Assembly (NCBI GenBank): GCA_045105395.1
Contig: JBGCDM010000007.1
Span: 11,440-75,439 of the forward strand
DNA length: 64,000 bases
Source of the DNA: Devosiaceae bacterium
Lineage (GTDB): Bacteria > Pseudomonadota > Alphaproteobacteria > Rhizobiales > MH13
Direction of reading: 5' to 3'
Shown here: positions 3,798-17,147 of the stretch, in pieces
Layout of the letters: each line of letters begins with the position of its first letter
Numbering within the stretch: the stretch's first letter is position 1
Translations under genes and position numbers: made by a program
Notes under the pieces: model-generated
What the model was told of the DNA's origin: nothing
What the model saw: the letters and a program-made list of their open reading frames with translations, nothing else
Databases searched by the model: none

Positions 3798-4424
3798 ATG
3801 CCGGCTACAGCCATATCGTTGAGTCAGACTATTTCACCTGCAGCCACAAAGCGCTGGCAAGGAATGGCGTTGGCATGCGTTCTAGCGCTCTTGCTAACGT
3901 TTCTCACACCCTTAATGACGCGCGCGCAGGCGCAAACTGGAAACACATTTTCTTCCCAAGAGATCGTAGATTCAGGTCATGTGTTTTTCGGAACAATGGC
4001 CCAGGGCATGGCGCAGGTCATCGAAAACCTGACATCACAATATGGCCAACCTAACGGGTATATATTGGGTGAAGAGGCAAGCGCAGCATTCTTTGGCGGC
4101 CTTCGTTATGGCGAAGGCACGCTTTACACCCGCAACGCAGGCAACCACCGCGTATTCTGGCAAGGGCCGTCTATCGGTTTTGATGTTGGTGGCGATGGCA
4201 CACGCACAATGGTTCTGGTCTACAATCTTCCATCGGTAGAAAGCATGTATCAACGCTACCCAGGGGTAAGCGGTTCAGCTTTCTTGGTCGGAGGGCTTTC
4301 TGTTTCAGCAGCACAGAGTGGCCAGGTGGTTGTCGCGCCCATTCGCGCAGGCATTGGTGCGCGCTTGGGCATCAATGTTGGCTATCTAAAGTTTACGCCA
4401 GAACCGACCTGGAACCCTTTCTAA
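3798..4424 (+). CDS. Secreted conserved hypothetical protein (DUF1134-like)
   Basis: ATG preceded by GGAAGGAA. The N-terminus is a signal peptide (...LLTFLTPLMTRAQAQ). The Gly-rich C-terminal half (GGLRYGEGTLYTRN...WQGPSIGFDVGGDG...VGYLKFTPEPTWNPF) resembles DUF1134 proteins of alphaproteobacteria. Confidence 0.6.
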   Translation: MPATAISLSQTISPAATKRWQGMALACVLALLLTFLTPLMTRAQAQTGNTFSSQEIVDSGHVFFGTMAQGMAQVIENLTSQYGQPNGYILGEEASAAFFGGLRYGEGTLYTRNAGNHRVFWQGPSIGFDVGGDGTRTMVLVYNLPSVESMYQRYPGVSGSAFLVGGLSVSAAQSGQVVVAPIRAGIGARLGINVGYLKFTPEPTWNPF

Positions 4425-4551
4425 GGATTAACTTCAGTTACCTAGCCTGCACGCCCAACCGGCTAAACACATGAATGTGACCGGCATCACGGCCTGCGCA
4501 AGCGTTTTTGTTAAGGCTGTTGCGCAACCATCCCTTGCGTAAAACAGAGGT

Positions 4552-5886
4552 ATGGTTGACACTGGGTTAAGGTGCATTTTGCGCACCATACCTTACCTCA
4601 TTTTGCTGGATCAAAGCGCCGTGACCGTAGCTAGTACAGTTGTTTTCCTCCTTGGTTTTTTATGCGCCTGCTTGCTAGGCCTCATCGCATGCAGGCTCGT
4701 TTGGGTGCGCGCTGTGCGCCTAACGCGTGCACGGCTGGAACGTGATCGTCCCGAAACTTTGCGGGCCTTTGAAGCACGTATTGCCGGTGCTCAAGCGCGT
4801 GCTGCCATCAGCATTCGCGAGCTGGAACGAGCGCTTGAGCGCGAGCGCCAAATTTCCGCTCAAGCGCGCCTAATGGCTGATCAAATGGGGTCATCTTCTG
4901 CACTCGCACTTGCCGAACGCGACGACACGCAATCCTCGCTGATAAATCTAAGCGATACACTTAATGGTACCCGTGAGCGTTTGCGCGATCACGAAGAAAC
5001 ATTGGTTCAGCGAAACAATGACATTGCTGACTTAAGACGTGACCTTGTGGACGTCCGCCAAGAGTTGGCTATGCGCGATGATGACCTTAATAGGATGACA
5101 GGTGAAGCTGATGCCTTGCGCGCAGAACTTGCTGCACACATGGTCGGCAACAGCGACCCAGCTAGTGTGAAGGAATTGGCACAAAGCGGTGATGCTGCCG
5201 CTATGGCGCGAACACAAATCGAGAGCCTGCGCGAAACCGTGCGATCACTGCGAGCAGAAAAAAATGCTGCTGAAGCCTCTGCTGCTCGTGCTCGTCTCTT
5301 GTTAGACGCCCGCGAGGATAACCAGGTTATCGCCGCTGCAAAAGCTGATTTCGAAGCACAACGTAAAGGTATGGAAGCTCGTATCAGCCAGCTAGAAGCT
5401 GAGTTGCAAAATGCGCCGCGCCGTACCGGACCACAACTTGTTGACCTTGGCGCTTTGGGCAGTGCAGATGCACCAGCTTTAGCCACGCCATCAACAGAAG
5501 TGTCGCAAGCAACAGATCTTGATTCATTGCGTAATTCCATTGATGCGATGACCGCATCACTGACAGCCACCGCTGCTAGCGCAACCGGCGGAAATGATCG
5601 CATCAATGCGTTGCTAGATGAAGCCGAAGAAGAAGGTGCTGATAGCAATCTTGTCACATCGCTTGTTGAAGCGCGCAACCGCTTGCGCAGCAAAAAGGCG
5701 ACGCCAAAATCCCCAAGAAAGTCCGCTGTATCAACGCGTGGCAAAACTGGTGACGGTCAGACAAAAACGGACTCGAAAACAAAATCGGCCAACGCCAAAC
5801 TTGTTGCGGCGACAGCTTCGGGCACGAGCTCTGAAAAAGCCGGCGGCATGCCTAGAGCCAGTGAAAGCGACCTTAAGGTAATTTGA
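4552..5886 (+). CDS. Membrane-anchored coiled-coil protein, function unknown
   Basis: 444-aa ORF. One N-terminal TM helix (VVFLLGFLCACLLGLIACRLVWV) is followed by ~300 aa of Ala/Arg/Glu/Leu-rich heptad-like sequence and a Lys/Ser/Thr-rich basic tail. The 245-aa antisense ORF 5007..5744 is a shadow. Confidence 0.6.
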   Translation: MVDTGLRCILRTIPYLILLDQSAVTVASTVVFLLGFLCACLLGLIACRLVWVRAVRLTRARLERDRPETLRAFEARIAGAQARAAISIRELERALERERQISAQARLMADQMGSSSALALAERDDTQSSLINLSDTLNGTRERLRDHEETLVQRNNDIADLRRDLVDVRQELAMRDDDLNRMTGEADALRAELAAHMVGNSDPASVKELAQSGDAAAMARTQIESLRETVRSLRAEKNAAEASAARARLLLDAREDNQVIAAAKADFEAQRKGMEARISQLEAELQNAPRRTGPQLVDLGALGSADAPALATPSTEVSQATDLDSLRNSIDAMTASLTATAASATGGNDRINALLDEAEEEGADSNLVTSLVEARNRLRSKKATPKSPRKSAVSTRGKTGDGQTKTDSKTKSANAKLVAATASGTSSEKAGGMPRASESDLKVI

Positions 5887-6105
5887 CAGTCGCGCTCGCT
5901 GCGCAGACAGAATGCTATCTGCCGCAAGAGACACGAAGGCTATGACCTCAGCTAATCAGGCTCTAACGATCGCACGCCAAAGCTGGTCATAAAACTCTAA
6001 GCATAGTTGTAGAACTGTTGAAGGTGTCACTGCGTCTTACGAGCCAAGTGGCAGACCTAATCTCTTGCTGCTGATGTCTGGGCCAAACTTATCGACCAGG
6101 GCTAC

Positions 6106-6621
6106 CTAACCGGTTTGTTCCACCGGCAAACCGTTCTCGTCCAGAGCAACACCAATATGGTTCCGTCCTAAAGTATCATTTGAGCTGCGCGGTTCCGGGC
6201 CAAAATATTCATCTGTACTCACGAAGCGGCGCGGATACAAAATGCAATCTGCCATACGATTATAAAGCGCCTTGGCAGAAACGGGCTTTGACAAGAAGTG
6301 GTTCACGCCAAGCTTCGATGAAGCCAAAACGCGGCTACGCTCGGTATGGCCCGACAGCATGATAATCGGCACATAGGCGCAGACAAAGTTTGGTTGACGG
6401 ATCAGCTTAACCAGCTCTGCACCATCAAGAACCGGCATGACCCAGTCGACGATGATGAGGTCTGGTGGCTGCATCTCGATTTTCTCAAGAGCATCTGCAC
6501 CATCTTCAGCTTCATGAATGCGACGTGCGCCAAACCCACGCAACATGGCCGACACGATGCGCCGCATATAGGCGGAGTCATCGATCACCATAATGTCTAG
6601 TGGGGCTACATCAATATACAT
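6106..6621 (-). CDS. Single-domain response regulator (receiver domain plus a ~45-aa tail)
   Basis: DIMVIDDSAYMRR...PDLIIVDWVMPVLDG...IIMLSGH...HFLSKP shows the acidic pocket, the phospho-accepting Asp (IVDW) and the conserved Lys (SKP) of CheY-like receivers. No output domain is visible. Confidence 0.85.
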   Translation of the reverse strand: MYIDVAPLDIMVIDDSAYMRRIVSAMLRGFGARRIHEAEDGADALEKIEMQPPDLIIVDWVMPVLDGAELVKLIRQPNFVCAYVPIIMLSGHTERSRVLASSKLGVNHFLSKPVSAKALYNRMADCILYPRRFVSTDEYFGPEPRSSNDTLGRNHIGVALDENGLPVEQTG

Positions 6622-6970: not shown

Positions 6971-8158
6971 CTACCGCTCCAAAATACCTCTGATCTCGCT
7001 CATATTGGTGCGGGCGCGTAGGATGTTCTCGCTCATGATGCTCAAGTGATCAGGCATCAGCACGCCATCTTCGCGGCCATTAGAGATAACCAACGGAGAG
7101 AGCGCTGCCGCCTCGGCGATGTGCTGTTCCATCCGGTCCCAGACGCCGCCCAGATTGCGCGAAGCCACGACGTCAGCGAAATCCTCACGCGCGGCCTGCA
7201 AAAGCCCATGATAGGCAAACATCTGGCCAGAGGCTTCCATGAACAGATTGTCCGCGCGGAAATCAAACCAGCCGCGATCGTTACCGTCCCCCGGCACAAA
7301 TTCATCGAGCTGCGGGTCGTACTGGCGACCGGTGGAACGGCGCGAGAGCTGATCCACGCTTGAGCCAATGTCGCGCGCGATACGGTCCAAAAACTGGATG
7401 AGGTTATCAGCACGCGCGTCAAACAAGGCTTCGCAAGCCTCAAGCCGATCATTGTAGCGCTCATAAAGTGGGATCGCATTGGCAAACAAACGCGAGGACG
7501 GCTGAACCGGTCCAAAAGGACGTTGATCATCCAGTGGATTGAACCACCATGTTTGCTCATCAAACTGCAGGCGGCCACGCGCGGTTTCTAGGTCGCTATC
7601 GGCGCCGGATGTTCCACGTTCACGGCCCAGCACATCCACCAGTTCAACTGCAGTGCGGCGCAGGGCAATCAGCACCCCAGTTTGGAAGGCCGCTTTGTTG
7701 TCGAGAAATGGGGTCGCCTCCCACTCAATGAGCCCCAGAATACCAACTTTATACTGTGGCATGCTTGGCACCCACGCGTTGCGATTCACCATCAAGTCCA
7801 GCAGATAGACCTGCATATCCACGATCTGCGAACGGTCACAGGTGCGCGCATCTGTGGGGGAGCCATCAACGGTTGCGGTCTCTTCGGCGGTGGCCATGGC
7901 GTTCGCACGCAGCACATCCTGCGGATAGGTTAGCGTGTCGCCGCGTGTCCAAAGCACATTCCAGAAGAAGGTGATGTTCCAAATAAGAAACAGAATGAGG
8001 AAGATGAGCAGCCCGCCGCGCCACGCGATGCGACCCGTTGCGCGCATGCCGCGCATCTTTTCCGGGCCGCCCTCTTCAGGCTTGGGCAAACGCAGTTTGA
8101 ACAGCGCAATGAACCCGCGCCACATAGCCCGCAGCCAATCAATAATGGGGTCAAACAT
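6971..8158 (-). CDS. Single-pass membrane protein, DUF2333-like (fifth and last gene of the operon)
   Basis: ORF 6971..8251 trimmed to the ATG at 8158 (AAGGA RBS; 22 nt after the upstream stop at 8181). A basic N-terminus is followed by the TM helix GGLLIFLILFLIWNITFFWNVLW and a ~330-aa soluble domain. The C-terminal motifs ARADNLIQFL and DNLFMEASGQMFAYHGLLQAAREDFADV resemble what I recall of DUF2333 proteins. This has not been checked by search. Confidence 0.6.
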   Translation of the reverse strand: MFDPIIDWLRAMWRGFIALFKLRLPKPEEGGPEKMRGMRATGRIAWRGGLLIFLILFLIWNITFFWNVLWTRGDTLTYPQDVLRANAMATAEETATVDGSPTDARTCDRSQIVDMQVYLLDLMVNRNAWVPSMPQYKVGILGLIEWEATPFLDNKAAFQTGVLIALRRTAVELVDVLGRERGTSGADSDLETARGRLQFDEQTWWFNPLDDQRPFGPVQPSSRLFANAIPLYERYNDRLEACEALFDARADNLIQFLDRIARDIGSSVDQLSRRSTGRQYDPQLDEFVPGDGNDRGWFDFRADNLFMEASGQMFAYHGLLQAAREDFADVVASRNLGGVWDRMEQHIAEAAALSPLVISNGREDGVLMPDHLSIMSENILRARTNMSEIRGILER

Positions 8159-8180
8159 GGGTATGTCCTTATCTGGCAGG

Positions 8181-9488
8181 CTAGTGCAGCCCAAAAAACG
8201 CCTCACGCACCTTCGCGCGCATACGCCAGCGGTCGTGCGTGTTCGGCGCATAATGCGTGGTGAGATAGTCTACCGCAAATGCCTTTTGGCGCTCGGTGTA
8301 GGTCTCGTAGATGTCGTAAAAACGACGCTTGTTCAAAATGAAGGTCGAGAGCAGATCAAAAGGTAGATGCTCGACAATGATACGATTGATATCAGAGGCA
8401 CCAGGCGCATCCGGCACGGCGCGGCGGAAATAAAACCGCTGTTCAGGTGTTAGCCGCCGCTCATAGGCCGCAGCTTCAGCAGGCGTATCCAGCAGGCCCC
8501 GCATCTGGCTGATCACACGAAAGCGCCTGTCAGGGTTTAGCTTAGCCATGTTGTCGGCAATCCAGCGCGAAAGGTAAGCGTCTTCAATCATACCGCTCGC
8601 ATCAAAGTCGTGATCGCCCAACATCAAAAGCTCAGCAACAAGCAGACGAAGGCGATGCTCCAAAAGACCTGATCGCTTGAGCCATTCAGGGTTAAATGGC
8701 TCCAACAAGCGCTCTTCCTCAAGGTAGGAGAACAGCACTGGCGTTTCGTGCATCGCGATTATAGATGCGCCGAAGGGCTTGGGCACCAGCTGATCGGCAT
8801 CTCCGATCATAACCGAGCCATCCTCGCGCGCCAGCACGTAGGCGCCACCGAAATGGCTGGTCCAAAAAACGTTCGGCCATTGGAAGGAGAGCTGCTGGGG
8901 CAAGAAGCCATTGCGGCGCACATCGCCAACACGTGCAGCGCCAGAAACGATATTCTCCATCAGGTTATGATCGGCCCATGCATTCGGCTCTTTCAAAAAC
9001 CGATCCATTTGGACTTTTAGCGTTTGGGCTTCCTCCAGCAATCCGGTGGGGGTGCGCACGATGAACCGCACATCACGAATACCAAGCACATCAGCGGGAC
9101 GTTCCACATCGAAAACCAAGTTCTCGATTTCGCCATATAACGCGTCTTTCAGCGTAACGGCACGGACCATACGATCATTGGCGGAAAAGAACGCACGGAT
9201 TACTTGTCCATCAGCGGAAAAGGATGTGCGGATCAGTGGTAAATCGGCCTGATCAGGCGAGAGGATGATAAAACGCCGGTTGATGCCTTCAGGATCAAGA
9301 TAAGATGCATTTTGCATCTCCAAGGCAACTTCATAGGAATAGCCAGAGGCATCGATATAGAAATCAGCAAGCTGAGTTTGCGGCAACCCAAAGGCTTGCA
9401 AGGCAGCATTATAGCGCGCCACCAGATGCGCGCTATCCACATGCAGCAGCCCGCCAAAGCGTAAGCCTTCTTCAATTAAGCGCTGCAT
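8181..9488 (-). CDS. Hypothetical cytoplasmic protein, 435 aa (fourth gene of the operon)
   Basis: The ATG at 9488 lies 3 nt after the stop of the upstream AAA gene (TAAccaATG). The reading frame is long and uninterrupted, with no TM segment, no signal peptide and no motif I recognise. Confidence 0.75.
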   Translation of the reverse strand: MQRLIEEGLRFGGLLHVDSAHLVARYNAALQAFGLPQTQLADFYIDASGYSYEVALEMQNASYLDPEGINRRFIILSPDQADLPLIRTSFSADGQVIRAFFSANDRMVRAVTLKDALYGEIENLVFDVERPADVLGIRDVRFIVRTPTGLLEEAQTLKVQMDRFLKEPNAWADHNLMENIVSGAARVGDVRRNGFLPQQLSFQWPNVFWTSHFGGAYVLAREDGSVMIGDADQLVPKPFGASIIAMHETPVLFSYLEEERLLEPFNPEWLKRSGLLEHRLRLLVAELLMLGDHDFDASGMIEDAYLSRWIADNMAKLNPDRRFRVISQMRGLLDTPAEAAAYERRLTPEQRFYFRRAVPDAPGASDINRIIVEHLPFDLLSTFILNKRRFYDIYETYTERQKAFAVDYLTTHYAPNTHDRWRMRAKVREAFFGLH

Positions 9489-9491
9489 TGG

Positions 9492-11381
9492 TTAGCTTTG
9501 CTCCAACCTTTTGGACGCCTTTTCGCGCACACGGTGGTCGCGCAGCAGCGCTTCAATGGCGGCCTCATCGGACTTATCCGAATAGCGGAACTCGCTGTCA
9601 GCATATCGATTGATCTCCTGCAAGATGAAATCCATCGAAATTGGCTTTTGCAGCTCTTCGATCATCGCCAGCTTCTCATCATAGCCCTTTTGCAAGAAGG
9701 CCTCTGGCTGCTCAAACCATGCGTCTGGCAACTCCACATCCATCGCGCGGTACTTAATAGCATCGGTAACATTCTTGATGGCGCGACCTGTGAAACGTGG
9801 CTCGGCCTCTTTAATTGCATGAAGATCAAGGCCGACATCACCGATGGTTTTCGGTTGCCCATGCTCCCGTGTGTATCGCTCCCACACCGCCAGAAGGCCG
9901 TCTTCTTTTGGCTGGTTGTGTTGTGCGTAAGATTTGGCCACTGCCTGCTTCAATGCTTGATCTGCAAAGAAGTCATCCTGGCCCAAAGGCACGTCATGCT
10001 TCTTGCCTAAGAGCAGATGGAAAATGTCGATATAATCGTTTTCCGTTTGCGGCCCGTCCACCAGCCACCTGGCACCGGCACGCTGGCGCAGCGCATCGTC
10101 AACCTTCTCTGGATAGTTGGAAAACATGCCAAAACTTGAGTTACCCCGTATCACAGTTTCCGCGCCGGAGAATGCGCCCATCAGAACACCCGTAACCTCT
10201 TGTTGTCCTGAGGAACTTTGCCGATCATCACGCTTGCCTGCCACCTGATCGATGTCATCAATAGTGCCAAAACCAATGGCTTTGGGGTCTAAGACACGGT
10301 CAATGAAAGCCCGGCAGTTTTGGCCCGATTTGCCCTGGTATTCTGATATCTGATCGATACCAAAATTCTCATAAACAAACGGGTATCCAGCGATGTCGCA
10401 ATAGTCCTTCACCAGGCCTGCGGTCATCTGGATGAGGGTGGTCTTTCCGGTACCGGGAAAACCATCACCCACGAAGGTGAAGAGGAACCCGCCAAGCTCA
10501 ACGAAGGGGTTCTTCTGCCGCTCAAAATCATAGGCGACAAGCATTTTGGCAAGCTTGATAGCCTGGGCTTTGGCGATGTGGTTGCCGACCACTTCATGCA
10601 CTTGTTTGAACTGCATGACCAAAGGTTTGCGCCCCTTGGTAGAGGCCGAGCGCTCAAACCCGCGTACATGAAAATCATCCGCCTCAATGGCGTAGGTGCG
10701 CGCGAGATAAGCTTGCAAGCTATCGCCCATAATGCGGTGGGCATCGCCCTCCACGCGGTCAATCACATCGGCCATTGCGCGCGCAATGCGCGGACCTAAG
10801 TCTTCATCATCCACAGCATCCGTGGCCGCCTTAGCCACTTGAGCCACCACAAAACTCAAAGCATCAGTAGCTGTGTCGTAGCTTGGCTCGCCCAGCGCCG
10901 TTGGTTCCCCAGCTGGAGCATCGCCTAAAGCGTGAAGAAAATGGCTGGCCGCAATAAAGCTTGCCACTAACGCCCGCGCGCGAACAAGCGAGCGAAAGGT
11001 ACTCTCATCAGTCGCTGACAAACCGGAGGTGCGCTTTTTCTCGCCAAGATCGAGATAGCCCAGCGGCTCAATAAAGAACTCCGATACCGTCATACCAACA
11101 GCAAGCGCACGACGTAGGCTGACCAATATGCCGTGCTCGCGAGTCGATAGCAGCGGATCATCGCCGCCCGATTTCCGCAGCGCCGCTTCAAGGTTTGCGC
11201 GCACACGGCGGGTCGGCGCAGCACTGCCTGCAATGGGCGAGACAAAGCGTGTGCGTCCCAGTTGTTCTGGCGCGCGCGGCAATGCCTCTTCCACCTCAGC
11301 ATTTTCCATCAAACCAAGGGCCGCAGGATAAGCCTCAACAATGCGTGCTTCAGGAATGCGAACCGAACTGGCGTCGATCAT
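9492..11381 (-). CDS. AAA+ ATPase (classical AAA module) with a ~300-aa unique N-terminal domain (third gene of the operon)
   Basis: Walker A is GDGFPGTGKTT (aa ~305-315, nt ~10437-10469). Walker B is GFGTIDDID (aa ~371-378). An SRH-like segment SNYPEKVDDALRQRAGAR corresponds to TNRPxxLDxALxRxGRF of classical AAA proteins. The start ATG lies 2 nt after the upstream stop (TGAttATG). Confidence 0.85.
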   Translation of the reverse strand: MIDASSVRIPEARIVEAYPAALGLMENAEVEEALPRAPEQLGRTRFVSPIAGSAAPTRRVRANLEAALRKSGGDDPLLSTREHGILVSLRRALAVGMTVSEFFIEPLGYLDLGEKKRTSGLSATDESTFRSLVRARALVASFIAASHFLHALGDAPAGEPTALGEPSYDTATDALSFVVAQVAKAATDAVDDEDLGPRIARAMADVIDRVEGDAHRIMGDSLQAYLARTYAIEADDFHVRGFERSASTKGRKPLVMQFKQVHEVVGNHIAKAQAIKLAKMLVAYDFERQKNPFVELGGFLFTFVGDGFPGTGKTTLIQMTAGLVKDYCDIAGYPFVYENFGIDQISEYQGKSGQNCRAFIDRVLDPKAIGFGTIDDIDQVAGKRDDRQSSSGQQEVTGVLMGAFSGAETVIRGNSSFGMFSNYPEKVDDALRQRAGARWLVDGPQTENDYIDIFHLLLGKKHDVPLGQDDFFADQALKQAVAKSYAQHNQPKEDGLLAVWERYTREHGQPKTIGDVGLDLHAIKEAEPRFTGRAIKNVTDAIKYRAMDVELPDAWFEQPEAFLQKGYDEKLAMIEELQKPISMDFILQEINRYADSEFRYSDKSDEAAIEALLRDHRVREKASKRLEQS

Positions 11382-11383
11382 AA

Positions 11384-12397
11384 TCAGATATCCTCGAACA
11401 GCTTGCCATCAGGCGACAGCGAATGGATGCGCATGCCACGCATCAGCGTATCGATGCCGCCTTTGGTGGCCATTAATTTCTGGTGGGCGCGATGCGGCAG
11501 CAAAGCATGCGCCCGCGAGGCACTGGCGCCACGTTCAGTGGCAAGCCCATCAGTGGTGTCGACAGCGTAGGTTTCGCGATAACGCGTGGGTGCAAGAAAC
11601 CAACTTTTGGTCTCTTCAGTACCAACCGAGATAACCTCATCAACATGCCAAACAAACATCCAGGCATCATCAACGGGAAGATCAGCAAACAATGGTGCAA
11701 AGGCTGGCGGTAGATCCATAAACACGGGCGAGTAAAATGGCCCCAAGGTCCATCGCTTCATCCGTTTGAGCGCAATGTCGTCAAACGCATCATCAAACTC
11801 AATGGCCGATGCCAGCGGGGTAAATCCGCTGCCTGAGAACTTGCGTGCCAGAGCCTGCATTTCTGTGTGGGGGAACGCTCGTGGCTGGCGATATTCAATC
11901 CAGGCCTGCGTAAAGACCGGCTTATTGGTGCTGCCATCCCAATGGTCCCAGGAAAGTTGCTTTAGCCGCCCCTCATCCTGCGGTTGTAGCGAGCGCCCTT
12001 CAGGCCAGAAAATCGGCAGCGCACCGCGCACCGCCTCCTGGTAGATCGCTCGGCCAATCTCCTGCAGTTGAAGCTTCCGTGGCACACGCCGACGTTCCAT
12101 CATCTGGTTCAGCAACCGCTCACGCAGATAGGCAGAGCTTTGCTCTGGCTCAGCGCGCGCTTTCACATCACGCGCGAGGGCAATAATATCGGCCAATATC
12201 GGTAAGCCGCTATCATTGCGGTCAGCGCGCACCGGCAAACCGCCAGCATCACGCTTATCGAGCAAGTCAAAAGAAGCGTCTATGCGCGCAGCAATATCCA
12301 CCAACACAGTGTCAGAAGATTGTAAAAGCCCCGCCGTCACGCGGCGCAGTGCTTCAAAATAGACGCGCCGAACATCCGGCATTACCGAAGCATTCAT
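11384..12397 (-). CDS. Hypothetical cytoplasmic protein, 337 aa (second gene of the operon)
   Basis: The ATG at 12397 lies 18 nt after the stop of the first gene. There is no TM segment and no recognisable motif. The tight coupling to the downstream AAA gene supports it as a real CDS. Confidence 0.7.
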   Translation of the reverse strand: MNASVMPDVRRVYFEALRRVTAGLLQSSDTVLVDIAARIDASFDLLDKRDAGGLPVRADRNDSGLPILADIIALARDVKARAEPEQSSAYLRERLLNQMMERRRVPRKLQLQEIGRAIYQEAVRGALPIFWPEGRSLQPQDEGRLKQLSWDHWDGSTNKPVFTQAWIEYRQPRAFPHTEMQALARKFSGSGFTPLASAIEFDDAFDDIALKRMKRWTLGPFYSPVFMDLPPAFAPLFADLPVDDAWMFVWHVDEVISVGTEETKSWFLAPTRYRETYAVDTTDGLATERGASASRAHALLPHRAHQKLMATKGGIDTLMRGMRIHSLSPDGKLFEDI

Positions 12398-12415
12398 CGG
12401 ATGATACGCTGCCAG

Positions 12416-13501
12416 TTATTCAACATATTTTCCAGATTCAACCTGCTCGACAATCTTGCCAAATCGGCGCGCAAATTCGGCATTGGCAAGGTCTGCCTTC
12501 TGGCGAATATCTTGCGTGCGCTTCATGTAGATCTCATGAGCTTCCATCATAGAAACAATGCGGTTTTCCGATGAAATGCCAATCTGCGTGATCATAGCTT
12601 CGGCTTGCGCATCGGTTTCCCGACCCACATCATCAATACGGTGACCAATGTTTTGCTGGGCGGAAGTACGCAAGGATTCCACCAACGCATCATACATGAT
12701 GGTGCGCTGCTCTGTGTCGATGTTGAGTTTGGAAATCAGCGTTTGCTGTGCAGCTTTTTGTTTGGCCAGACTCTCGACATAATTGGCATAGATGGCGCCA
12801 TAGCGCTCAAAGCTCTGCTGTGTCGCCACCAGTTCTTGCTTCTTGGCCGTCGCTTCATTGTAGGCATTGGCAAGCTGGGCGCGCTCTGCCTGATGCGCTT
12901 TAAGCGCTTCACCGGTTGCATCAGCAATTTGCGCATCAATGGCAGAGATTTGCGGTGCAAGAACATCAAGCTGCGCATCGGTCTCTTCGATAGAGCGTGC
13001 TGTCACTTGCGCGCGCTCAAGCACATCGGCCTGAGCGTTTTTCGATTTATCCAAACGATCATCGATCACCGCCAGTTGCTCTTCAAGCAGGCCGCGAATG
13101 ATTTCTGATTTTTCAATCAGATTATTGAGATTGGAGCGGATGTCGGCATTGCGGATGCGCGATGTTTTCATTTCTTCGGCGCGGCGCTTGGAAAAAATAC
13201 TCCACAGCTTCTCACCAAATGTGCTTTCACTCATCGACTTGAATTCAGAGCCAAAGGATTGGGTGATTTCATCAAGCCCATAAACAAGCGAAGCAATATT
13301 GCCTTGCAGCTTGTCTTCATTTTCGACCACAGACTTAAAGTCCTGATCGTCAATGTTCACATCAATTGTCTGCATCTGGCTTTCGCCAAGCACGGCGCCA
13401 AGACGTTCATCAATTTTAGACTGAGTGGAGTTGATTTCCTGGACCTGGGAGCGGGTCTCAGCAATACCACGCTCCAATTCGTCAAACTTTGCCCGTGCCA
13501 T
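12416..13501 (-). CDS. Long alpha-helical/coiled-coil protein, possibly TelA-like or PspA-like (first gene of the operon)
   Basis: 361-aa ORF starting at the ATG at 13501. It is rich in Glu/Gln/Ala/Leu/Ile with heptad-like periodicity throughout (e.g. DAQLDVLAPQISAIDAQIADATGEALKAHQAERAQLANAYNEATAKKQELVATQQSFERY) and has no TM helix. Size and composition resemble TelA-type proteins, but that is unverified. Confidence 0.7.
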   Translation of the reverse strand: MARAKFDELERGIAETRSQVQEINSTQSKIDERLGAVLGESQMQTIDVNIDDQDFKSVVENEDKLQGNIASLVYGLDEITQSFGSEFKSMSESTFGEKLWSIFSKRRAEEMKTSRIRNADIRSNLNNLIEKSEIIRGLLEEQLAVIDDRLDKSKNAQADVLERAQVTARSIEETDAQLDVLAPQISAIDAQIADATGEALKAHQAERAQLANAYNEATAKKQELVATQQSFERYGAIYANYVESLAKQKAAQQTLISKLNIDTEQRTIMYDALVESLRTSAQQNIGHRIDDVGRETDAQAEAMITQIGISSENRIVSMMEAHEIYMKRTQDIRQKADLANAEFARRFGKIVEQVESGKYVE

Positions 13502-13661
13502 TTTGGTCCATTCCCCTGCTCATGTGTGCGCTTGGCGCTGTGATTAATGATACTTAGTGATGATTTGGCGGTTTTCACCGACGTTCAAGCGACTTAAGAC
13601 GAAAGTTGCTCCGTAAGGAAGTGATCCAACAGTCCAAAAACGTATTTAAGGACCCACTCGC

Positions 13662-15218
13662 ATGCCAAACGCCCCGCAAGAGCGAACGCCACAAGCTGTA
13701 GACCTGTTTGTCATCGGTGGTGGCATCAATGGTGCTGGTGTTGCGCGCGATGCGGTTGGGCGCGGTTATTCTGTTTTACTGGTGGAAATGGGCGATATTG
13801 CCAGCGCAACATCCAGTTGGTCCACCAAGCTCATTCATGGAGGCCTACGCTATCTTGAGCATAACGAGTTTGCTCTGGTACGCGCATCGCTTATCGAACG
13901 CGCGCGTCTGCTATCGGTCGCCTCACACCTTGTCTCTCCACTTCGGTTTGTTTTGCCCCATGGCTCAGGCATGCGCCCGGCGTGGCTCATCAGGCTTGGG
14001 CTGTTTCTCTATGATAACTTGTCCATGAGCCGTAAGGTGCCTGGCTCTAAGGGCATCAACCTTGCCTCTGATGCGGCAGGCAAAGTTTTAAAGCCAGCAA
14101 TGCGCACCCGCGGCTTCACCTATTATGATTGCCGCGTGGATGATGTGCGCCTCACTTTGGCAAACTTGGCTGATGCTGCCAAACGTGGAGCCTCTATCAA
14201 GCCACGCACAAAGCTCATTGGTGCCAGTGTGAGCGATGGTTTATGGAAGCTAACATTGGAACGCCAAGATGATGGGGTGCGCTATGAGGTGCATGCCCGC
14301 CACGTGGTCAACACGGCTGGCCCGTGGGCCGATAAAGTGGCCCACCTTCTTACCGGATCAAACTCCCCCATCGGCCTGCGCCTTGTGCGCGGCTCGCACC
14401 TGGTTGTGCGCAAACCTGCAGGCTTAGATGATGCCTATTTAATGCAGCAGCCTGATGGGCGCGTTGTGTTCATCATACCTTATGAGGGTGACTATGCCCT
14501 GCTTGGCACCACCGATGCTGACCATATCGATCCTGCCGATGTTGAAATCTCGCCTGAAGAAACAGAATATCTTTTGGAAGCAGCCAACCTATACATGGAC
14601 AGGCCGCTGACCCGTGATGACATCGCTTGGACATTTGCTGGCGTACGCCCTCTGCTTGATGATGGATCAGACAATGCGCAAGAGGTGACGCGCGATTACA
14701 AAATTCTGACCAAAAAGCACCTAGCTGCCGGCATGACCAATGTGTTTGGCGGCAAGCTAACAACCTTCCGTACCTTGTCGCAGAAGGTCGTTGACGACAT
14801 TGCCGAAGTTACAGCGCCTACATCCCATGGCATGGAAAGTGGATGGACAGGATACACAGCATTCGATGATGCTTTTGTGGACGATGTATCGCGCAAAGCA
14901 GTATTGGATCAGGTGCGTGAAAGCCTATCGCAGGGCCTAAGTGTGGTGGACGCTGCCGCCCACGCAGACCGTCTGGTGGGTATGTATGGGCGCTCAGCTC
15001 AGTCGCTGGCGGGCATTATTGGTGCCGCCAAAGAAGCACCGCTTGAGGCAGGCTTATTCCCCGCTGAAGTGAGCCACATGGTTGAGCACGAATGGGTGCG
15101 CACGGCAGAAGACGCGCTGTTCCGCCGTTGCAAGCTGGGCATCGGCAAACCGCAATCAGCTTTTGATCAAGTGCAGGCGCTTATCGATAACGCCCTTGCC
15201 AAAAAAGATGCCGCCTAA
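13662..15218 (+). CDS. glpD: FAD-dependent glycerol-3-phosphate dehydrogenase
   Basis: The N-terminus has a dinucleotide fold, DLFVIGGGINGAGVARDAVGRGYSVLLVE, followed by TSSWSTKLIHGGLRYLE. The 518 aa length and the position directly upstream of glpK also fit. Confidence 0.9.
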   Translation: MPNAPQERTPQAVDLFVIGGGINGAGVARDAVGRGYSVLLVEMGDIASATSSWSTKLIHGGLRYLEHNEFALVRASLIERARLLSVASHLVSPLRFVLPHGSGMRPAWLIRLGLFLYDNLSMSRKVPGSKGINLASDAAGKVLKPAMRTRGFTYYDCRVDDVRLTLANLADAAKRGASIKPRTKLIGASVSDGLWKLTLERQDDGVRYEVHARHVVNTAGPWADKVAHLLTGSNSPIGLRLVRGSHLVVRKPAGLDDAYLMQQPDGRVVFIIPYEGDYALLGTTDADHIDPADVEISPEETEYLLEAANLYMDRPLTRDDIAWTFAGVRPLLDDGSDNAQEVTRDYKILTKKHLAAGMTNVFGGKLTTFRTLSQKVVDDIAEVTAPTSHGMESGWTGYTAFDDAFVDDVSRKAVLDQVRESLSQGLSVVDAAAHADRLVGMYGRSAQSLAGIIGAAKEAPLEAGLFPAEVSHMVEHEWVRTAEDALFRRCKLGIGKPQSAFDQVQALIDNALAKKDAA

Positions 15219-15272
15219 GCCGCCGTTTCAAAAGCGCCGCAAGAGCGCAAATCAATACTCGGGAGACCTACC

Positions 15273-16760
15273 ATGAGCTTCATTCTGGCTATCGACCAAG
15301 GCACCACATCAGCCCGTGCTCTGATCTATGATGCGGCGCTTAATGTGGTTGCCAGCGCGCAGGAAGAACTGCCGCAAATTTACCCAGCCGATGGTTGGGT
15401 AGAGCATGATGCCGAAGTCATTTGGAGCTTAGTACAGTCCACTATCAGCACGGCACTGAACAAAGCTGGCAAAGCGCCAAGCGACATGGCGGCCATCGGC
15501 ATCACTAATCAGCGCGAGACGGTCGTCGTGTGGGATAGGTCCACCGGCAAACCAATTGGCAATGCCATTGTTTGGCAAGATCGGCGCACCGCTGAAACAT
15601 GTCGCCGCCTGAAGGCGGATGGCGCAGAGCCTATGGTGCAAGAGCAAACTGGCCTGCTGCTCGATCCCTACTTCTCCGGTTCAAAACTGGCTTGGATGCT
15701 GGACCAGGATCGAAGCCTGCGGACACGCGCATCCAATGGCGAGCTGGCATTTGGTACCATCGACAGCTTCCTGATTTACCGCCTTACCGGCGGCAAACGA
15801 CATGTAACCGATGCAAGCAATGCGTGCCGCACGCTGCTGTTTGATATCGGCACGCAAGGCTGGTCGGATGACCTTTTAAAGCTGTTCAACATTCCTGCCG
15901 CCATGCTGCCTGAGGTTCTTGATTGTGCGGATGATTTCGGCATCACAGACCCATCGGTGTTTGGGGCGTCGGTGCCCATCCTTGGCTGCGCGGGTGATCA
16001 GCATGCTGCAACCATCGGGCAGGCTTGCTTTCAACCAGGCATGGTGAAGGCAACCTATGGCACGGGGCTTTTTGCTGTGCTCAACACCGGTAACGAGCGC
16101 ATCCAGTCAAAGAACCGCTTGCTAACCACCCTCGCCTACAGGCTGGATGGAAAACCCACCTACGCGCTGGAGGGTTCTGTGTTTATTGCTGGCGCCGCCG
16201 TTCAGTGGCTGCGCGATGGCCTCAAAATCATTGAAAACGCGCCGCAGGTGAACGATTTGGCCAACAAAGGCGTTCGCGGGGCAATCACGCTGGTGCCAGC
16301 TTTCGTTGGCCTGGGCGCGCCCTATTGGGATCCAGATGCCCGCGGCGCGATTTACGGCATTACCCGCGACACGGGGCCTGAAGATTTCGCGCACGCAGTG
16401 CTAGAAAGCGTGGCGTTCCAAACCCGTGACCTACTGGATGCGATGGCGCGCGACTGGCCGCAAGGCGAGCGCTCTGTGCTGCGCGTCGACGGCGGCATGA
16501 CCCAATCTGATTTGACGCTACAATTGCTGGCGGACATTCTTGACGCGCCAGTTGAACGACCCAACGATCTAGAAACCACCGTTAAAGGCGCAGCTTATTT
16601 GGCTGGCCTCAAAGCAGGACTTTGCCCCGACATGGAGACGTTTGCCAAAACCTGGCAAAAAGATGCTGAATTCCGCCCAAACCTCGACGAGGAAACGCGC
16701 CAGTTTCATATGGCGAGGTGGCACGACGCAGTTAAGCGCACACTTTCCCAACCCAGCTAA
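15273..16760 (+). CDS. glpK: Glycerol kinase
   Basis: [20 protein letters not shown]...[29 protein letters not shown] is the canonical FGGY/GlpK N-terminus. The protein is 495 aa and has a GGGAGA RBS. Confidence 0.95.
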
Positions 16761-16766
16761 CCTGTA

Positions 16767-17147
16767 TCAATTGGTAAATCGCACCGATGAAACGATCTGC
16801 CAGGTTGCACGGTCAATTTCCAGCACCACAGCACCATCCGTGCTTTGCGCACTCACAAACAAGGAGCGTTCATCCACGCTGGTTCCTACAATCTGCGCGC
16901 CGGGCACACTAGCAACCACAAGCGAACGCACTTCATCGGCACTTAGATTGCTCGGATAGTCAGGCGTCGACGGAATGGCGAGCGCGCGATAGAGGATAAC
17001 GCCCAACACAGCAAAGATGCCCAAAAACATGATACCCGACGATACCAACGACAACCGCTTCATTTTAACCGCGACAGCTTCGAGCCGTGGATCGAGCGGT
17101 TCTTCATCATTTGGATTGTGAGGGGTATTAGGCGTGGAAGATGACAT
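16767..17147 (-). CDS. Small single-pass membrane protein, function unknown
   Basis: 126-aa ORF with an ATG at 17147 (an alternative is the internal MKRLSLV at ~17063). It has one TM helix (VSSGIMFLGIFAVLGVILY). Its stop lies 6 nt from the glpK stop, in convergent orientation. Confidence 0.5.
   Translation of the reverse strand: MSSSTPNTPHNPNDEEPLDPRLEAVAVKMKRLSLVSSGIMFLGIFAVLGVILYRALAIPSTPDYPSNLSADEVRSLVVASVPGAQIVGTSVDERSLFVSAQSTDGAVVLEIDRATWQIVSSVRFTN

Follow-up and report, generated by a model that had tools for sequence, protein, structure and literature searches.

The 64,000-nt window analysed here (assembly GCA_045105395.1, contig JBGCDM010000007.1, positions 11,440 to 75,439, from a Devosiaceae bacterium) contains five minus-strand open reading frames (ORFs), referred to as g1 to g5, which form one five-gene operon. 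The operon is strongly conserved among marine and soil Hyphomicrobiales and lies outside any characterised system. The encoded proteins measure 361, 337, 629, 435 and 395 aa, and the spacings between the genes are 18, 2, 3 and 22 nt. Read directly, the junctions are TAA, 18 nt and ATG between g1 and g2, TGAttATG between g2 and g3, TAAccaATG between g3 and g4, and TAG, 22 nt with AAGGA, and ATG between g4 and g5. The operon is divergent from glpD (DAO and DAO_C domains, 13662-15218), after which glpK comes next. A preliminary description of this DNA, made from the letters without database searches, had given these ORFs, their lengths, their junctions and the divergence from glpD, and the coordinates and junctions were confirmed.

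12416..13501, minus strand: g1, ORF, 361 aa
11384..12397, minus strand: g2, ORF, 337 aa
9492..11381, minus strand: g3, ORF, 629 aa
8181..9488, minus strand: g4, ORF, 435 aa
6971..8158, minus strand: g5, ORF, 395 aa

Conservation of gene order was assessed in genomes and in metagenomes. A scan of one genome per species recovered DUF6638 (g4) relatives in 332 species genomes, of which the best 80 were inspected, and all of these 80 are Hyphomicrobiales. Together with two loci found earlier, 72 loci were long enough to judge, and 68 of them carry g1-g2-g3-g4-g5 in this order on one strand; of the remaining four, two are rearranged (L024, L049) and two come from assemblies with frameshifts. Searching metagenomes from g1 gave 282 relatives and 80 retained loci, 48 of which extend at least 6.5 kb downstream, and the full five-gene order is found in every one of the 48. 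The arrangement is far beyond chance, and the single operon unit proposed from the spacings alone is borne out by these counts. The same neighbours are present even in operons whose g2 is only 19-25% identical to that of the window. The closest operons (g4 89-91% identical) come from Ahrensia marina ac1 and from related metagenome-assembled genomes (Hyphomicrobiales, Cohaesibacteraceae, Cohaesibacter sp.).

In Sinorhizobium, Mesorhizobium and relatives the operon occupies a fixed chromosomal site between tdk and fhs. Its GC content in the window (0.52-0.57) resembles that of the flanks, no tRNA gene was found in window positions 1-25000, and no integrase or transposase is encoded among the six neighbouring ORFs scanned (3798-6621 and 13662-17147). 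The syntenic site, the flank-like composition and the lack of such genes nearby agree with the earlier assignment to the core genome rather than to an island. No viral relative was found in IMG/VR (2.9 million viral contigs), and descent from a virus was rejected on this ground.

Scans of the five proteins against Pfam, NCBIfam, PADLOC and PHROGs returned only AAA, DUF6638 and DUF2333 matches of substance. No description of the system was found in the literature searched by DUF names, by Pfam, COG and InterPro accessions and by S. meliloti locus tags, and these family and literature searches uphold the earlier statement that no characterised system has this five-gene composition. The profiles place the proteins in no characterised pathway, the genes are co-located in other genomes, and the 337-aa and 435-aa proteins are both conserved. 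The proteins are not members of the Vps4, PspA/Vipp1, TelA, PADLOC defence or ClyA groups, whose defining features were looked for and not found.

The five proteins

The classical AAA domain that had been recognised in the 629-aa product is confirmed by a match of g3 to PF00004 (E 3.6e-10, 40.8 bits against a cut-off of 21.2), and the same family is found in 22 of 22 orthologues. The protein consists of a family-specific N-domain (residues 1 to ~280, about 270-280 residues), a single AAA module and a C-terminal extension.

10002..10535, minus strand: g3 AAA core, residues ~283-460, from conservation over 72 orthologues with motifs placed by Yme1 alignment

Across these 72 orthologues the Walker A motif (G305-DGFPGTGKT-314) is invariant, and pore loop-1 (Y348-Q349-G350), the sensor-1 residue N422 and the arginines R432, R434 and R438 are invariant or nearly so. 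The middle residue of pore loop-1 is glutamine and not hydrophobic, and the invariant Walker B (I374-D375-D376, GTI-D-D) carries DD in place of the usual DE. When the g3 profile was compared with the PDB, 41 matches were obtained, including only weak ones to VAT, Rpt4/Rpt2, Cdc48, Yme1 and Afg2 (E 4e-6 to 1e-3, about 22-29 bits), and g3 therefore branches deeply within the classical, substrate-threading clade. None of the 41 is to Vps4, katanin or spastin, and in the single-sequence search fidgetin-like 1 ranked behind Yme1 at E 7e-3. Neither MIT (PF04212) nor Vps4_C (PF09336) was detected in the 22 orthologues at E ≤ 0.1, and no other accessory domain was detected either; in the PDB the N-domain profile matched nothing at E ≤ 10. 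NCBIfam gave a weak EccA match (E 3e-3, 16 bits against a cut-off of 467).

Relative to the classical AAA unfoldases (VAT/Cdc48, Rpt/PAN, FtsH/Yme1, Afg2), g3 shares the Walker A motif, the aromatic-x-Gly of pore loop-1, the sensor-1 asparagine and the arginines of the second region of homology. Unlike them, it has a Walker B DD, an unmatched N-domain (~280 residues) and C-terminal extension, and no protease, MIT, CDC48_N or OB domain; the similarity amounts to only about 22-29 bits, and g3 is encoded with four dedicated partners, an arrangement not seen with those ATPases. By its motifs, g3 looks like a competent threading motor, for which a hexamer and substrate threading are predicted.

g1 is an acidic, all-helical coiled-coil protein. 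Its AlphaFold2 (AF2) model is helix throughout, as the preliminary description had expected of an almost wholly helical product, and has an overall predicted local distance difference test (pLDDT) score of 66.8 with less certain ends. Within it, a central hairpin (H121-194/H197-279, 74 + 83 residues) is confident at pLDDT 85-95 and is preceded by ~120 helical residues. The orthologues in the aligned set are 37-93% identical and share 42 invariant residues. Single-sequence and profile searches gave no match to g1 in Pfam, NCBIfam or PDB sequences, and Snf7 (PF03357), PspA_IM30 (PF04012) and TelA (PF05816) are absent from the Pfam matches of 28 orthologues even at E ≤ 1. Foldseek comparison of the model with the PDB returned nothing below E 0.02, with no ESCRT-III, PspA or Vipp1 in the top 50; the top matches are long helical hairpins from Smc5/6, Smc and MukB arms, chemoreceptors and ClyA-family toxins. 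These matches are non-significant and generic for coiled coils, and readings of g1 as an SMC protein, a chemoreceptor or a ClyA-type toxin were rejected. In an ESCRT-III fold check, the hairpin of this model (pLDDT only 66.8) is central and not in the N-terminal alpha1-alpha2 position. The maximum 19-residue hydropathy of g1 is 0.72, and the protein has no signal peptide, hydrophobic head or beta-tongue.

The 337-aa g2 protein is soluble and has relatives in 119 clusters at 50% identity (E ≤ 1e-3), and it is the least conserved member of the operon. No Pfam family was found either with a single scan or with per-member scans of the alignment at relaxed E. An AF2 model built from an alignment of 42 diverse homologues is confident (pLDDT 94.8, predicted template modelling score 0.91) and predicts an N-terminal five-helix domain followed by an alpha/beta C-domain with a beta-beta-alpha-alpha-beta-beta unit. 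The best Foldseek match of this model in the PDB (E 0.16) is a partial QueF-like T-fold over about 85-100 columns; kinship with the T-fold was rejected, the resemblance being partial and unsupported at that E-value. BFVD contained nothing credible (best E 7e-3 at a TM-score of 0.09), which leaves the predicted fold of g2 without a structural match, and the g2 profile matched no PDB sequence even at E ≤ 10. Ten matches between g2 residues 58-107 and a 1458-aa protein (P0203) on a eukaryotic-looking contig (L085; neighbour BLTP1/Csf1) are repeat-driven, and that protein was rejected as a homologue.

g4 is a clear member of DUF6638 (PF20343; E 3e-69, 234.4 bits against a cut-off of 27), as are 15 of 15 orthologues tested. 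Genes 2 and 4 had both been described as matching nothing recognisable, which holds for g2 but not for g4. The g4 protein is soluble, with no hydrophobic segment, and its profile has no PDB match at E ≤ 10. Residues ~33-66 of g2 (window 12200-12300, minus strand) and ~20-51 of g4 (9336-9430, minus strand) each contain a helix followed by a conserved (I/V)D-x(0-3)-(S/T)G(F/L/Y) motif at a similar distance from the N-terminus, a resemblance that may be due to chance (hhalign probability 1-6%). Paralogy of the two proteins was rejected at this probability, the similarity being confined to the 30-residue motif.

g5 is the single membrane protein. A hydrophobic segment was found in g5 only, the other four remaining at or below 1.3 in 19-residue Kyte-Doolittle averages, in line with the four soluble proteins and one membrane protein foreseen earlier. 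Taken from its most distant possible start, 8251, the g5 ORF would encode 426 aa; the start at 8158 was chosen because 16 of 16 aligned orthologues begin at M[LF]D[PG]I. As had been suspected from its C-terminal motifs, g5 belongs to DUF2333 (PF10095; E 5e-24, 85.2 bits against a cut-off of 22), with residues 151-395 covering profile positions 87-329 of 330.

7946..8017, minus strand: g5 transmembrane helix, residues 48-71, Kyte-Doolittle 19-residue maximum 2.26 at residue 51
8018..8158, minus strand: g5 cytoplasmic N-terminal extension, residues 1-47, from the M[LF]D[PG]I start motif and alignments

Lysine and arginine outnumber aspartate and glutamate before the helix (10 to 5) and are outnumbered after it (1 to 5). 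From this charge bias we infer an N-in, C-out topology, in which the N-terminus would be cytoplasmic and the DUF2333 domain (~325 residues) is predicted to be periplasmic; the basic N-terminus, single helix and periplasmic domain described earlier accord with this prediction. The profile tests of genes 1 and 5 divide, with DUF2333 found for g5 and TelA, PspA/IM30 and Snf7 not found for g1. No PDB match was obtained for g5 with the single sequence or with a profile to E ≤ 10.

Both DUF families are without known function. DUF2333 occurs once in the searched literature, as an unstudied neighbour gene of the Pseudomonas hcp3 locus, and no mention of DUF6638, PF20343 or PF10095 was found there. 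Operon-linked g5 represents a subtype of DUF2333 with an additional cytoplasmic N-terminal extension of 45-70 residues across orthologues, which is lacking in the stand-alone members of Skermanella, a Rhodobacteraceae plasmid and Vibrio. Stand-alone DUF2333 genes adjoin extracytoplasmic function (ECF) sigma/anti-sigma pairs on Skermanella and Rhodobacteraceae plasmids (L090:4922-8777, L091:6256-8747), an arrangement suggesting that family members beyond this operon are regulated by envelope stress.

Natural variants and candidate interfaces

The neighbourhood is kept with all five genes in Hyphomicrobiales and only in part in Vibrio, where g1-g4 occur without an adjacent g5. Reduced versions of the operon were found in three settings.

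Four Vibrio vulnificus/parahaemolyticus plasmids, ~0.9 Mb: g1-g4 without adjacent g5; g1-g4 are 32, 23, 42 and 27% identical to those of the window
R. leguminosarum TP16 plasmid pRlX5 (L093, 1.3 Mb): g1-g4 without g5, full-length RpoD-like sigma factor gene directly downstream
R. leguminosarum BIHB 1148, ancestral choXWV-tdk...fhs site: g1′ and g5 only; g1′ is 357 aa and 26% identical to g1 (E 1e-19)

In Vibrio, mfd directly follows g1-g4 and a gene of the RNase H family is nearby (L087, V. vulnificus FORC_036), and each of the four plasmids also encodes a distant DUF2333 protein without the N-terminal extension (~380 kb from g1-g4 in FORC_036). On pRlX5 a UvrD helicase gene is found further downstream, on the opposite strand. 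Housekeeping-type information-processing genes such as these, standing beside g1-g4 on Vibrio and Rhizobium megaplasmids, are unusual plasmid content.

In R. leguminosarum BIHB 1148 the g5 protein is 62% identical to the M. loti protein, and a metagenomic contig with the same choXWV-tdk...fhs flanks still has all five genes. The g1′-g5 pair is intact and widespread, forming 90%-identity clusters of 336 (g1′) and 85 (g5) sequences with neighbouring accession numbers, which cover R. leguminosarum, R. laguerreae, R. ruizarguesonis, R. brockwellii and others. By this comparison, the R. leguminosarum complex has lost g2-g4 while keeping g1′ and g5 at the ancestral site. Since g1 is present both in versions with g5 alone and in versions with g2, g3 and g4, it is the common hub of the system. 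g2 and g4 are obligate companions of the g3 motor.

Two elements track these variants. The g5 N-terminal extension is found wherever g1 is adjacent, that is, in all operon-linked g5 proteins and in the R. leguminosarum g1′-g5 pair, and it is a candidate docking site. The second is a 22-residue block of g1 which, together with a near-C-terminal tyrosine (Tyr359), is present wherever the AAA module is present.

12617..12682, minus strand: g1 block, residues 274-295 (VESLRTSAQQNIGHRIDDVGRE), from the alignment; invariant Q282, Q283, H287 and G293

In the alignment the block is kept in g1 of the window, Mesorhizobium, Roseibium, Sinorhizobium, Vibrio and pRlX5. The g1′ of the R. leguminosarum complex, which has no AAA partner, shows a clean deletion of the block and lacks Tyr359 as well. 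Block 274-295 is therefore a candidate contact site for g2, g3 or g4.

Upstream region, inserts and neighbouring genes

The presumed promoter lies in the short divergent region between g1 and glpD.

13502..13661, minus strand: divergent intergenic region g1-glpD, 160 nt between the g1 ATG (13501) and the glpD ATG (13662); presumed promoter and 5′ leader

In other genera, an element of the form CTT(T)CAA-N16-18-CTATAT, of the rhizobial sigma-70 type, precedes g1 by 35-100 nt; it was found at 20 of 71 loci, where shuffled sequences gave 0.1. EcfG, RpoH and RpoN promoter patterns were found upstream of g1 in none of the 71. The clade of the window itself gave no match to the sigma-70-type element, and the promoter at this site is an extrapolation from the other loci. 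A block of ~70 nt upstream of g1 (window 13530-13600, minus strand; GTCTTAAGTCGC...ACGTCGGTGAAAACCG.CAAA...CAC.AAGTAT.ATT) is near-identical in the window and in two further loci (L003, L009), among which the surrounding intergenic sequence differs; it is possibly a promoter or leader particular to this clade.

In Mesorhizobium, Aminobacter, Sinorhizobium and relatives the g3/g4 gap, and sometimes the g2/g3 gap, carries selfish inserts. These comprise ~140-aa DUF559-type endonucleases (L018, L027, L031, L034, L036, L038, L057, L064, L076, L079), VapBC-like PIN toxin pairs (L040, L054, L059, L063, L067, L072, L075, L077) and a copy of ISRm16 (L088:6060-7805). Such DUF559, VapBC-like and insertion sequence (IS) ORFs inside the operon were rejected as parts of the system. 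The inserts mark the g3/g4 junction as a hot spot for insertion, and they show that the genes are not everywhere coupled as tightly as in the window.

Several PLSDB 'plasmid' records are of chromosomal size: CP090106.1 ('pSymB', 3.72 Mb), NZ_CP069303.1 (4.6 Mb) and NZ_CP104127/131/135 (3.52 Mb). The record inspected, CP090106.1, shows chromosomal synteny (choX, tdk, fhs, an shmR-like receptor and trpE); the chromosome-size records look mislabelled, and a plasmid location is therefore not to be read from them. In S. meliloti Rm1021, a ChvI-binding gel-shift fragment (F9) is reported to lie inside SMc02733 (PMC3687685). Gene-number arithmetic between shmR (SMc02726) and choX (SMc02737) would probably make SMc02733 the g2 or g1 of the S. 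meliloti operon.

On the far side of g5, 2.5 kb away, the window contains a gene for EipA (envelope integrity protein A, PF06577, E 9e-72) at 3798-4424 on the plus strand. EipA homologues are encoded 3.5-8 kb from the operon, on either side, in 12 loci of at least three lineages. EipA was rejected as a part of the system, the linkage being too loose (3.5-8 kb, both sides), and its presence may be mere regional synteny. Two further genes lie between EipA and g5: one at 4552-5886 (plus strand) for a 444-aa protein with an N-terminal hydrophobic segment, a long coiled coil and a weak DUF7900 match, and one at 6106-6621 (minus strand) for a stand-alone CheY-like receiver of 171 aa, which follows g5 on the same strand after 350 nt. 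Conservation of the two next to the operon is nearly confined to the clade of the window, with L079 as a further locus that has the receiver.

A possible mechanism and its alternatives

One mechanism would accommodate the composition of the operon and its natural variants. In it, g1 would be the hub and likely client, anchored to the inner membrane through the cytoplasmic tail of g5, and a g3 hexamer, aided by g2 and g4 as cofactors or adaptors, would spend ATP to grip, unfold or disassemble g1 assemblies, with block 274-295 and/or the conserved C-terminal tyrosine end as its likely handles on g1. The state of the g1-g5 complex would thereby be reset, in response to, or in control of, something that the periplasmic DUF2333 domain senses or acts on, and the likely field of action would be envelope homeostasis. 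An envelope role is hinted at by the topology of g5, by the ECF sigma/anti-sigma pairs beside stand-alone DUF2333 genes and by the ChvI fragment in SMc02733, a gene probably but not certainly of the operon. The idea of a threading motor is put forward because the nearest solved relatives of g3 (VAT, Rpt, Cdc48 and Yme1) are substrate-threading unfoldases. For the whole mechanism, in which g3 remodels g1 docked on the g5 tail, we estimate a probability of roughly 0.4. The further proposal, that this is an undescribed and independently evolved machine in which an AAA+ unfoldase and two cofactors cyclically remodel a coiled-coil scaffold on a DUF2333 tail, is tentative and somewhat doubtful.

Several observations weigh against remodelling of g1 at the membrane. 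Sets of g1-g4 without g5, beside mfd, rpoD and uvrD genes, indicate that the motor module is independent of g5 and may be purely cytoplasmic. With DD rather than DE in Walker B, hydrolysis by g3 may be slow, and a switch rather than a threading motor is possible. The promoter looks housekeeping-type or constitutive and not stress-type, and the ECF-sigma neighbours belong to stand-alone DUF2333 genes, whose products have no N-terminal extension. Confidence in the g1 model is only moderate, the predicted structures are those of the g1 and g2 monomers only, with all contacts inferred, and co-inheritance is the sole ground for the roles guessed for g2 and g4. The envelope-associated machine of the preliminary description stands as a conserved, membrane-linked unit; its envelope part is plausible, with g5 as the sole component that points there, and genes 1-4 also exist without it.

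These points are shared in part by a reading that we consider unlikely, in which g1-g4 form a cytoplasmic AAA+ system for remodelling of the nucleoid, of transcription or of a replicon, or for protein quality control, and g5 is an add-on of the Hyphomicrobiales. The g5-less sets on Vibrio megaplasmids, with mfd directly after them and an RNase H gene close by, and on pRlX5, directly before the full-length RpoD-like sigma factor and near the UvrD helicase, would suit such a system, as would the housekeeping-like promoter and the Smc5/6, Smc and MukB arms among the top Foldseek matches of g1. However, those structural matches are non-significant (E ≥ 0.02, TM-score ≤ 0.44) and generic for long helical hairpins, and the Pfam scan detected no DNA-binding domain in the five proteins. 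The membrane partner also argues against an add-on: g5 is present in every complete alphaproteobacterial operon, it bears a g1-linked extension, the motor-less g1′-g5 pair is retained across a whole species complex, and the four Vibrio plasmids each hold a DUF2333 gene as well, though a distant and extension-less one. It is improbable that the operon is instead a true, highly diverged ESCRT-III/PspA-Vps4 or TelA-type module, with g1 as a cryptic ESCRT-III polymer and g3 as its Vps4. There is a formal likeness to ESCRT-III/Vps4 and to PspA (IM30/Vipp1, LiaH) with its anchors (PspBC, LiaI), namely a helical-hairpin protein and a membrane partner and, for ESCRT-III, also an AAA motor; the g1 hairpin is long and confidently predicted, it is paired with a classical-clade AAA protein, and in Rhizobium the helical protein and its anchor persist without the motor (g1′ and g5), as PspA-type systems do. 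But neither sequence nor fold homology was seen for g1, whose orthologues lack Snf7, PspA_IM30 and TelA matches and whose model retrieves no ESCRT-III, PspA or Vipp1; its hairpin (~160 residues, 121-279) is central and follows ~120 helical residues, unlike the N-terminal hairpin of ESCRT-III. MIT and Vps4_C are likewise missing from the AAA orthologues, Vps4, katanin and spastin from the PDB matches of g3, and any match from its N-domain profile, while the g5 anchor has a ~325-residue periplasmic DUF2333 domain and g2 and g4 are without counterpart. The comparison with ESCRT-III, PspA-Vipp1, Vps4 or TelA made in the preliminary description thus finds no support as homology, and that with ESCRT-III and PspA survives only as functional analogy.

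An anti-phage defence or other conflict system on mobile DNA is a still less probable reading. Many defence systems have an AAA+ ATPase core, the genes occur on megaplasmids, and in several genera toxin-antitoxin, DUF559 endonuclease and IS insertions are found inside the operon, but PADLOC (PADLOC-DB 2.0) yields only partial matches of 11-17 bits (LmuB, PycC, TRIP13, IetA), and there is no PHROGs match of note, no relative among the 2.9 million viral contigs, and no nuclease, nucleotidyltransferase, TIR, SIR2 or similar effector domain in the Pfam scan. The stable syntenic chromosomal site, the vertical-looking conservation and the flank-like composition with no integrase or tRNA nearby argue in the same direction. 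Least probable of all, in our judgement, is a system that exports or assembles g1, either as a helical toxin like those of the ClyA family or as a surface protein; g3 would then be an EccA-like secretion chaperone and g5 a membrane conduit. Foldseek does list PaxB, XaxB, AhlB, YaxA, SmhB and NheA, which are similar in length to g1, at a 'prob' of up to 0.97, and g3 has its EccA match at E 3e-3; yet the ClyA-family E-values are 0.03-0.3 with TM-scores ≤ 0.48, the EccA score is 16 bits against 467, g1 shows neither the hydrophobic head nor the beta-tongue or signal peptide of an exported toxin (maximum 19-residue hydropathy 0.72), and the single transmembrane helix of g5 would make no channel unless in a higher-order oligomer.

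Remodelling of g1 on the g5 tail finds its closest counterpart in NSF/alpha-SNAP/SNARE, where an AAA motor with adaptors acts on a membrane-tethered coiled coil. This is pure analogy: NSF differs from g3 in its two AAA rings and in the known fold of its N-domain, the setting here is the bacterial inner membrane, and no SNAP or SNARE similarity was detected in the five proteins. The composition of the operon is distant from every described system, and a new mechanism is not thereby demonstrated.

Four of the five proteins are without a characterised relative, yet the whole set is inherited as a block in hundreds of species. Energy-coupled links between cytoplasm and periplasm are few and important, among them Tol-Pal, TonB, Lpt and the Psp response, and an AAA+-driven link of this kind, if real, would be a significant addition, along with functions for two widespread DUF families. 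The operon is present in genetically tractable rhizobia (Sinorhizobium meliloti strains and Mesorhizobium loti), and these organisms, the series of natural deletions (all five genes, g1-g4 only, or g1 with g5) and the two candidate interface elements make the mechanism directly testable. If it is true, cytoplasmic ATP would be coupled to a periplasm-facing function by a counterpart of ESCRT-III/Vps4 or NSF/SNARE whose non-motor parts are unrelated to theirs, and a first function would be given to DUF2333, to DUF6638 and to two families without a Pfam entry.

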